UHGV virus genome: UHGV-0120943
Origin: a virus
DNA: 33,468 nucleotides
Reading direction: 5' to 3' (one strand)
This document shows positions 23,777-25,601 of this stretch, piece by piece. A program made the translations under genes and the position numbers. The notes under the pieces were generated by a model that saw nothing but the letters and a program-made list of their open reading frames with translations, was not told the DNA's origin and made no database searches. The first letter of the stretch is position 1. Each line of letters opens with the position of its first letter.

Positions 23777-24403
23777 ATGACAAGTCAAAGCGTACTGCCT
23801 CCGAACGCAATAACCCCCGAGAGAGCGCTGGAATCTGTTTTATCTCACGTTGGCGATCTGCCTGGCGATATTCGAATTATTAAAAATCCCGATTTGTGTC
23901 CTGCAAATCTGTTGCCGTGGTTGGCGTGGGAATACGCCGTCACCTACTGGAACCCCGACTGGAGCGAGCAGCAAAAACGCGAAATTATTAAAGCAGCTGC
24001 GTGGCAGAACAAGCACCGCGGAACGCGTGGAGCTGTTGAACGAGCGTTATTAACAGTTGGATTTGAGAGCAAAATGAGAGAGTGGTTTGAAGCCACACCC
24101 AGGGACGACCCGTATACATTCGCAATTAAAATATATCTGCTAAAAAGTATGGGGTTAGATTTAGAGCTATTGAATACATTTATTGCACAAATATTTGATG
24201 CAAAAAATTGTCGTTCATTATTAAAGGAAATAAATTTCGGAACAGGTGTTGACGGTGAGTTTTTTATTGCCGGAAGTCCTTACGCAAAATTGGATGTTGA
24301 TATACCAGCCGATGGTGATGGTGGCGTGAAATTAAATGGCGGATTATATATATCAGGCTCACCAATTGTGAGTCTGTTAGTGGAGATTGGACCTAATGGC
24401 TAA
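23777..24403 (+). CDS. Tail protein I (P2 gpI-like) with AT-rich C-terminal extension
   Basis: 208 aa, in the conserved J-I-H order; last third is markedly AT-rich. Confidence 0.75.
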   Translation: MTSQSVLPPNAITPERALESVLSHVGDLPGDIRIIKNPDLCPANLLPWLAWEYAVTYWNPDWSEQQKREIIKAAAWQNKHRGTRGAVERALLTVGFESKMREWFEATPRDDPYTFAIKIYLLKSMGLDLELLNTFIAQIFDAKNCRSLLKEINFGTGVDGEFFIAGSPYAKLDVDIPADGDGGVKLNGGLYISGSPIVSLLVEIGPNG

Positions 24404-25601
24404 ATTAAAATCAAATCTGAAAGCGAGCGCGAGCCAGGTTTATGCGGTGCTGACAGACCGGGGGGCGCAACTTGAAGCCGCTGCGCTGGCATCGGGTGTA
24501 CCCGTGGTGCTGAATAAATTCGTTATTGGTGACGCAAACGGAAACGGCGACGTGACGCCAGACCCGGCCCGAACAGCATTAATTCACGAGACGTATCGCG
24601 GAGATATTAAATCGTCAGAAAATAGCGGTAATCAGGTCATTTTTACACTGTACGTACCGCCGGAAACCGGCGGTTATACCATCCGCGAGGTGGGGATATT
24701 AACAGATAAAGGGGAGCTGTACTCAGTTGCACGTTCACCGGATATTTTGAAACCGACGGACAGTAACGGTGCGTTGATTTCAATCACGTATAAATACACA
24801 CTCGCGGTGTCCAGCACGTCTACTGTTAACGTTATTATTGATAATAGTAGTGGAATTAGTCAGACAGATGCAGATAAGCGTTATTTGCAGATAAGCAAAA
24901 ATTTATCTGAAATTAAAGATAAGGGCGCGGCGGCGCAACAAGCTGGGCGAGAAAATCTCGGCGTTAACTTAAATAACTATTATAAAAAAGAAGAGATAGA
25001 TAATAAATTTTCAGAAGTGGATAATGAGTTAAATAATATAAACCCAGTCATGACGGTTAACCATTTGCAGCCTGATTCTGACGGCAACGTTAATGTGGAT
25101 TCGGGATACGCAAAACTGGGCGGCGACGGGGCATTTAATTTAGTTGCTCTGTTTCCGCAGCAATATGAACCTGACGCGACAAATAAAACTATGCCTGGTT
25201 ACCGGCTTTCTTCTGTGATATTTAAAGCGAATCCCAGCCTTGAAATTTTGGCTCATGGATATTTATTTGGATTGTGGGAATTAATTGCCATTCCGTTAGT
25301 GACAGCATCTAGCGGATACGAACTGAATGGCGGTGTTTCTGGTGCTGTAATGGCTCGGCGAATTCCTGTTGGCAATATAAACAAATTCAGTAATATAAAA
25401 AAACCTCATTATCCTCAGGGCCGTGGCGTGGTGGGAACGTATGAAACTGCCTACATAAACATTGAATGCGATATTGAGGGAGTTGGAACCGGACTAATAT
25501 TCACGACAAATAATAATGATGTTGAGGAATACGGTCGTCAATTATATCAAAACGCAATAAGCGGTATGTACGGCACAGTAACAAACGGTTATCAAGGTTG
25601 A
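24396..25601 (+). CDS. Tail fibre protein (gpH-like N-terminus, divergent AT-rich C-terminal domain)
   Basis: N-terminal 130 aa (MAKLKSNLKASASQVY ... VLNKFVIGDANGNG ... IREVGILTD) resembles the conserved P2 gpH N-terminal domain; remainder is Asn/Lys-rich. Track start 24387 is TTG; ATG at 24396 has a GGAG Shine-Dalgarno. Confidence 0.75.
   Translation: MAKLKSNLKASASQVYAVLTDRGAQLEAAALASGVPVVLNKFVIGDANGNGDVTPDPARTALIHETYRGDIKSSENSGNQVIFTLYVPPETGGYTIREVGILTDKGELYSVARSPDILKPTDSNGALISITYKYTLAVSSTSTVNVIIDNSSGISQTDADKRYLQISKNLSEIKDKGAAAQQAGRENLGVNLNNYYKKEEIDNKFSEVDNELNNINPVMTVNHLQPDSDGNVNVDSGYAKLGGDGAFNLVALFPQQYEPDATNKTMPGYRLSSVIFKANPSLEILAHGYLFGLWELIAIPLVTASSGYELNGGVSGAVMARRIPVGNINKFSNIKKPHYPQGRGVVGTYETAYINIECDIEGVGTGLIFTTNNNDVEEYGRQLYQNAISGMYGTVTNGYQG

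Follow-up and report, generated by a model that had tools for sequence, protein, structure and literature searches.

The tail fibre gene of the viral genome UHGV-0120943, a stretch of 33,468 nucleotides analysed over its whole length and referred to here as the window, raises a question of assembly. The gene (24396..25601, + strand; ATG start, 401 amino acids, TGA stop followed by TAG) is succeeded after 12 bp by the tail sheath gene, and no separate chaperone gene lies between the two. Swapping a fibre tip does not usually work when the cognate Tfa, the fibre assembly protein, is left behind, which makes Tfa a practical obstacle in host-range engineering. In PMC9608196 and PMC10579305, Tfa is described as a non-conserved N-terminal domain (N-domain) which binds the fibre tip, joined to a conserved helical C-terminal domain (C-domain) which mediates trimerisation, and the Tfa of phage Mu (TfaMu) is described as staying on the virion. 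We found that the fibre of the window ends in a domain homologous to the Tfa N-domain, and we propose that the distal part of the gene is a fibre-Tfa fusion cassette whose tip-binding N-domain would stand in for Tfa in cis, a reading whose functional part we infer and to which we assign a probability of roughly 0.7.

Absence of a separate chaperone gene

The fibre stop codon TGA occupies positions 25599-25601 with the TAG directly after it, and the intergenic gap of 12 bp (25602..25613, + strand) holds this second stop and the GAGG Shine-Dalgarno site (ribosome-binding site) of the sheath gene, which starts with an ATG at 25614. The first-pass annotation of this DNA, made from the letters without database searches, had reported this spacing and the lack of a separate chaperone gene, and had named a short chaperone open reading frame (ORF) as the finding that would overturn it. 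Both statements held when the ORF list and profile scans were consulted. No + strand ORF of at least 30 amino acids other than the fibre itself was present in 24396-25614, that is between the fibre start and the sheath start; no small gene of the Tfa kind stands immediately 3' of the fibre, where only the 12-bp gap to the sheath is found; and three C-domain profiles run against all six frames of the whole window detected no Tfa C-domain (best E 0.68). The ORF list and the profile scans led us to reject a chaperone ORF concealed on one or the other strand or in another part of the window, and a read-through or frameshift extension of the fibre was rejected because the TGA is directly followed by further stops, the TAG and then TAA TAA.

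The C-terminal domain of the fibre and its relatives

The domain in question occupies residues 326-401 of the fibre (25371..25598, + strand) and has a beta-beta-beta-beta-alpha layout. A counterpart is found in the commonest relative, termed variant B (strain SA186 and phage vB_EcoM-569R10), where a gene for a 129-amino-acid 'hypothetical' protein lies between fibre and sheath. Residues 327-396 of the window's fibre aligned to residues 3-65 of that protein with 39% identity (E 3e-14), and a profile built from stand-alone proteins only picked out these same fibre residues (327-396, E 4.2e-21) as its sole match in the six frames.

The wider family was revealed by an exhaustive HMMER search of 1.84 billion representative proteins with fibre residues 191-401 as the query; word-indexed protein searches gave only 2 and 6 matches, and a locus scan with one alignment (A3) gave one genome locus and two viral loci. 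The HMMER search returned 27 matches. Those to the head or the terminal domain fell into two architectures only, about 12 fibres (201-509 amino acids) in which head and terminal domain align to the extreme C-terminus, and about 10 small proteins (78-159 amino acids) which begin with the same domain; the few other matches reach only the N-terminal 50 or so residues of the query. Conserved motifs of the domain are FSNI.NP, TCDIEGVG and FTAS..D.EEYGRQLY.NA..G.YG. The domain is 37-48% identical to the stand-alone forms, and family-wide it is far better conserved than the preceding head; key residues are retained in fused and free forms alike, and all forms stop a few residues past the domain. The fused architecture was found in at least 12 clusters differing by more than 50% in sequence and on four N-terminal anchors, namely the P2 gpH type, the Mu S type, the lambda Stf type and one other.

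The small proteins identify the domain. Three of them (P0022, P0028 and P0029) pass PF02413 (Caudo_TAP) in their C-terminal halves with 41-42 bits against a cut-off of 22.1 and also match PHROG tail-fibre-assembly families, and a profile of the C-domain of these small proteins matches residues 105-174 of phage Mu U (TfaMu) at E 8.7e-13. P0028 is located in the same V-W-J-I-fibre-Tfa-sheath-tube module. In the 129-amino-acid protein of variant B the N-domain is followed by a Tfa-like helical region (E 4.7e-7 to a PF02413-type C-domain profile). At the level of sequence, these comparisons showed that fibre residues 326-401 are homologous to the Tfa N-domain. Run on the whole fibre and on its last 81 residues, Pfam gave no match to the conserved helical C-domain of Tfa; neither Pfam nor NCBIfam assigned a family to the last 76-81 residues, and nothing meaningful came from searching solved structures by sequence with the fibre or the 129-amino-acid protein as query.

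N-domain-only proteins of 74-86 amino acids, without the Tfa C-domain, were also seen. P0007 and P0008, small proteins of 74-83 amino acids made up of the N-domain and a proline-rich tail, are encoded directly after fibre-like genes ending in '...MRIA' on podovirus-like metagenome contigs (L005-L009). The presence of such proteins beside fibres indicates that the domain also exists on its own.

Fused and split forms of one system

Comparison of the fibre ends located the point of fusion. Five fibres which have a separate N-domain protein downstream all end in G[TS]W....h[MLCI]R[IV]A followed by a stop, and in the window and E24377A, the two fused fibres compared, the sequence at the same point is VMA[RQ]RIP[VI]GNI[NS]K. 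In the window the last strand of the fibre, VMARRI, thus runs on through P-V-G into the Tfa N-domain, and the pre-junction motif AQR[VI]P[IV]G shows good conservation among the fused members. The C-terminus and head of the variant-B fibre are remotely homologous to those of the window (hhalign probability 95.6%, E 1.3e-8). Alignment therefore showed the window's gene to be an in-frame fusion of fibre and Tfa lacking the conserved helical C-domain, and the remote homology of the heads together with the matching junction shows that the window and variant B carry the same system, fused in one and split in the other. In the split form the N-domain is encoded apart from the fibre and continues into a helical C-domain; in the fused form the fibre itself carries the N-domain and the C-domain is missing.

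None of the nine other fused fibres examined has a Tfa downstream. In a close E. coli relative, ETEC1738, this holds both for the counterpart of the window's fibre and for a second, lambda-Stf-type fibre. The sheath follows the fibre after 14 bp in variant C and after 11 bp in E24377A, and the distance recorded after the fibre of a common Salmonella prophage (P0020) is 31 bp. In a Mu-like prophage (P0015) com and mom come directly after the fibre and there is no U gene or invertible segment, two copies lie at prophage ends (P0012 and P0010), and a moron gene is next in the remaining case (P0016). The fused domain was present in every Tfa-less fibre examined, the window and these nine, and absent from fibres followed by a Tfa. 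The fusion explains the missing chaperone gene in the window, and it likewise explains why one appears to be 'lacking' from a whole set of prophage tail modules in E. coli and Salmonella.

The second ETEC1738 fibre is encoded by an extra gene after gpD (34541-35488 of locus L004), has 315 amino acids and ends in a Tfa-N-like domain (E 9e-16); the gene is absent from the window, where a gap is seen at about 31565-31610.

A protein identical to the window's fibre is already recorded as 'phage tail protein [Escherichia coli]', and the fusion of fibre and Tfa N-domain is apparently unannotated. We found no published description of such a fusion in a literature search of incomplete coverage. The domain, of about 70 amino acids and without a Pfam or NCBIfam model, links database entries named 'phage tail protein' to small proteins named 'hypothetical'. 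Apart from the fusion, the gene is an ordinary mosaic prophage fibre.

An exchangeable distal cassette

The fused domain forms part of a distal cassette of 687 bp (24915..25601, + strand) which comprises the end of the shaft, the neck, the receptor-binding head and the Tfa-N-like domain. Sharp breaks in identity against collinear relatives delimit it. Alignment to the DNA of variant B (SA186, phage vB_EcoM-569R10) gives 92% identity as far as 24914 and 90% from 25603 onward, and between these junctions only a stretch of 110 bp matches, at 69%; blastn alignments to loci L003 and L001 break at 24914, directly after NLSEI (residue 173). The 687 bp of the window correspond to 1069 bp in variant B, made up of the fibre end and the gene for the 129-amino-acid protein. 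In ETEC1738 and in an IMG/VR contig (L024) the cassette is 98.8% identical to that of the window, and in the same comparison identity drops to 84-87% in gpI and at the fibre N-terminus and stands near 95% in the other tail genes. The contrast between 98.8% inside the cassette and 84-95% in its flanks indicates recent movement between diverged backbones, and on this comparison of sequences the cassette is a horizontally exchanged unit which moves as one.

A horizontal swap of the distal part had been suggested in the first-pass annotation from base and amino acid composition, and the breakpoints now bear it out, with some changes of detail. The boundary had been placed at about 24840 and the relatives move it to 24914/24915. 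The content of guanine and cytosine (GC) does fall, from 0.468 in 24396-24914 to 0.412 in 24915-25601 (0.35 at third codon positions) against 0.484 for the whole window, which places the cassette within the lowest 4% of 687-bp windows. Enrichment of the distal part in Asn (6.0% to 10.4%) and Tyr (4.7% to 6.0%) was also seen; the description 'Lys-rich' was wrong, since the share of Lys is unchanged across the boundary (5.3% vs 5.2%).

Among 5426 complete E. coli genomes the tail module was found in 583, the variant-B cassette in 427 and the cassette of the window in 4. A stretch of 32 nucleotides in the head (25228-25259, codons 278-288) is identical to a spacer in type I-E arrays of clustered regularly interspaced short palindromic repeats (CRISPR) in about 55 complete E. 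coli genomes, and it is preceded by a canonical AAG protospacer adjacent motif at 25225-25227; the cassette itself is in only 4 genomes.

Structure models

The receptor-binding head (residues 236-325; 25101..25370, + strand) was modelled with AlphaFold2 as a globular, beta-rich unit with the motifs GDGAF and GLW. Strands were predicted at residues 247-252, 271-278, 282-289, 292-296 and 316-322, with a block-mean predicted local distance difference test score (pLDDT) of 53-93, and the head ends in the strand AVMARRI (residues 317-323). The terminal domain was modelled with strands at residues 331-339, 345-349, 353-360 and 364-372 and a helix at 378-388, after which short helix the model ends; its mean pLDDT per block of 10 residues was 81-98 over residues 331-400 and fell below 50 only at the last residue. 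In the model of the stand-alone protein P0022 (mean pLDDT 91.9) three strands precede a helix, the same order of elements, and two long helices come next, which are missing from the window's fibre. A C-domain of two helices, like the layout of P0022, is reported for TfaMu in PMC9608196.

The predicted template modelling score of the fibre monomer, 0.72, is compatible with a packed head and domain and is not proof of tip binding. A beta-helix, which had been put forward as a fold to look for, gave no signal, and Pfam matched nothing in the fibre beyond the N-terminal PF12571. In a fold search of the PDB the domain had no match, and no fold match to the N-domain of TfaMu (PDB 5YVQ) was obtained.

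Proposed mechanism and its alternatives

We propose that each chain of the fibre trimer would carry its own tip-binding domain, or clamp, in cis. Three clamps could then pack on the receptor-binding head and remain in the virion as a permanent tip cap, which would keep the C-termini aligned as the chains fold and may take part in contact with the receptor. With the clamp supplied in cis, no chaperone in trans would be needed; the Tfa C-domain, thought to drive trimerisation, has been lost along with the separate gene, and head and helper domain would travel as a host-range cassette in a single ORF. Contact of the domain with the head in cis, or an aid to folding, is what we infer from the sequence relationships and the models. 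A stronger version, in which the cis tether makes the fibre fully chaperone-independent, the Tfa C-domain is dispensable and the head with its built-in chaperone forms a portable cassette for P2-, Mu- and lambda-type anchors, can be offered only tentatively, and we regard it as somewhat doubtful.

Several observations weigh against the proposal. Profiles of the N-domain and of the head have no match to Mu S or Mu U, so that the tie to a solved Tfa complex runs only through the C-domain of the stand-alone relatives. The domain presumed to nucleate the trimer, the Tfa C-domain, is absent. A Tfa from another prophage of the host could act in trans. The split half of the association between fused domain and missing Tfa is partly circular, as the split cases were found through the stand-alone proteins, and the cassette was present in no isolated phage of the phage collection searched.

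The gp38 protein of T2/S16-type phages is encoded in the position of a chaperone gene yet ends up as a tip adhesin, and the terminal domain might likewise be mainly a receptor-binding tip adhesin with no role in folding. Its place at the extreme distal end and its travel with the cassette would fit this, as would the 74-86 amino acid N-domain-only proteins beside fibres, which imply a role for the domain independent of the chaperone half, and the report that TfaMu remains on the tip and is proposed to touch the receptor (PMC10579305). We nevertheless consider an adhesin without folding function unlikely, because conservation is much higher in the domain than in the head, where a determinant of specificity would be expected to show the reverse. 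The well-conserved motif before the junction might also be taken as a sign of a classical intramolecular chaperone, one which aids trimerisation from the C-terminus and is then autocleaved as in K1F endosialidase and the T5 L-shaped fibre, and the C-terminal position on a fibre without a chaperone gene in trans is what such a module would have. The conserved strand before the junction is, however, the usual C-terminal strand of unfused fibres, which accounts for its conservation without cleavage; neither Peptidase_S74 (PF13884) nor any other Pfam family matched, and the model has four strands and one helix in place of a helical bundle. An autocleaved chaperone is accordingly very hard to reconcile with the data. 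The idea of a built-in chaperone, raised in the first-pass annotation to account for the missing gene, survives in spirit in the homology of residues 326-401 to the Tfa N-domain, and fails as to the Peptidase_S74 kind.

E. coli hosts usually carry several Tfa genes. A prophage gene in decay, produced by a chance deletion that linked the fibre with a shortened Tfa, might be non-functional or might rely on the Tfa of another prophage. Some members of the family do lie in prophage remnants (P0012 and P0010), and the lack of the cassette from the cultured phages of the collection would agree with decay. Decay is difficult to square with a fused architecture that stays unbroken across 12 or more diverged clusters and four anchor types, with key residues kept in fused and free forms, with clean ends after the domain, and with intact neighbouring tail genes in the window, and we hold it to be improbable.

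If the fibre-Tfa fusion acts as we propose, it has several uses. A natural fusion of tip and chaperone domain on at least four anchors suggests a simpler, one-gene design for fibre engineering, and the current Tfa model, which assigns binding to the N-domain and trimerisation to the C-domain, can be tested directly on the fused cassette. Should the fibre prove chaperone-independent, it would be a natural experiment showing that the presumed driver of trimerisation, the Tfa C-domain, is dispensable.

Comparison with known systems

The two-module logic of Mu gpS and gpU, whose complex is PDB 5YVQ (North et al. 2019) in the summary given in PMC9608196, is a close parallel. In that logic an N-domain binds the fibre tip and co-varies with the fibre end, and a conserved helical C-domain goes with it. 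The Mu Tfa remains on the virion tip, and the Mu U C-domain is found again in the stand-alone proteins related to the window's domain (E 8.7e-13). In the window, unlike Mu, the N-domain is covalently fused and there is no C-domain, no separate gene and no invertible G segment, and neither head nor N-domain has sequence similarity to Mu S or U. The Mu-like prophage which carries the fused type is without U and gin altogether. With P2 gpH and gpG the window shares the PF12571 anchor, the placing of gpI ahead of the fibre, and baseplate, sheath and tube of P2 type; it differs in having no equivalent of gpG, a sheath gene 12 bp after the fibre, and lambda-like head genes. Variant B (vB_EcoM-569R10, SA186) has the same backbone at 90-92% DNA identity and a 129-amino-acid protein which begins with the same domain, and differs in encoding a 394-amino-acid fibre and this protein as two genes, with the helical C-domain kept.

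The Peptidase_S74 chaperones of K1F endosialidase, T5 pb1 and GA-1 gp12 resemble the window's domain in being C-terminal, assembly-related modules in cis with no chaperone gene in trans. The domain of the window differs from them in that neither sequence nor Pfam gave a match, its model contains no trimeric helical bundle, and there is no sign of autocleavage. In cyanophage Pam3 the beta-rich N-domain of gp25 embraces the tip of gp24 and its helical C-domain trimerises, gp25 being a separate protein which is absent from the virion (PMC9608196). The model of the stand-alone P0022 shares this layout of a beta-rich N-domain and a helical C-domain, whereas no sequence or Foldseek link between Pam3 gp25 and the window's domain was detectable.

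Fibre architecture and gene neighbourhood

We read the gene as encoding the side tail fibre of an E. coli prophage, built from a gpH-type anchor at the N-terminus, a short shaft and the distal cassette. Over its full length the fibre protein matches phrog_5075 (5e-162). Its N-terminal part had been described as a conserved gpH-type anchor, and this was confirmed by PF12571 ('Phage tail-collar fibre protein, N-terminal') at residues 13-152 (24432..24851, + strand) with 109 bits against a cut-off of 23; P2-like gpH proteins were also matched by tblastn. Residues 14-199 are 81% identical to the variant-B fibre. The linker motif NLSEI...G..AQ..AR.NLG (residues 169-190; 24900..24965, + strand), which is common to fibres with unrelated N-termini, holds the left recombination junction at about 24914 (residue 173). 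The neck motif NINPVMTVNHLQPDSDGNVNVD (residues 214-235; 25035..25100, + strand) is also present in the variant-B fibre and in most members of the fused family.

The fibre gene has an alternative start codon, TTG, at 24387. An in-frame ATG at 25350-25352 (Met319, within VMARRI) lies 5 nucleotides after GGTG, and a putative internal start there would yield an 83-amino-acid product like the N-domain-only proteins; this Met is not kept across the family. The fibre N-terminus, MAKLKSNLKASASQV... (24396-24440), is 9 residues longer than and unlike the MAENKI... of ETEC1738 (401 vs 392 amino acids). This difference and the identity of only 84-87% in gpI and the fibre N-terminus, against about 95% in other tail genes, suggest a second mosaic boundary upstream.

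The fibre gene follows gpJ and gpI immediately within the baseplate module of a contractile tail, with gpV, gpW, gpJ and gpI on its 5' side and sheath, tube, a gpE-like chaperone, tape measure, gpU and gpD on its 3' side, and the adjoining tail genes are intact. The gene for the gpI-type baseplate protein (23777..24403, + strand, in the ORF list; PF09684 Tail_P2_I, E 2.4e-37) overlaps the fibre start by 8 nucleotides at its 3' end. The sheath gene (25614..27113, + strand) matches PF04984, PF17482 and phrog_23 (1e-103). A promoter and terminator scan of 24200-25800 gave only matches at the level expected from AT-richness.

ETEC1738 (locus L004) is about 94% identical over most of the window and has lambda-like head genes. 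Head genes of this type (gpW, portal, S49 protease, decoration protein, major capsid and FI) were seen at about 12000-20400 of the window and in L004, and together with the P2-like tail genes they make the element a prophage with a lambda-type head and a P2-type contractile tail. Just beyond the tail module, on the - strand at 32239-32994, lies a gene for a BRO-N domain protein (PF02498, E 8e-25).

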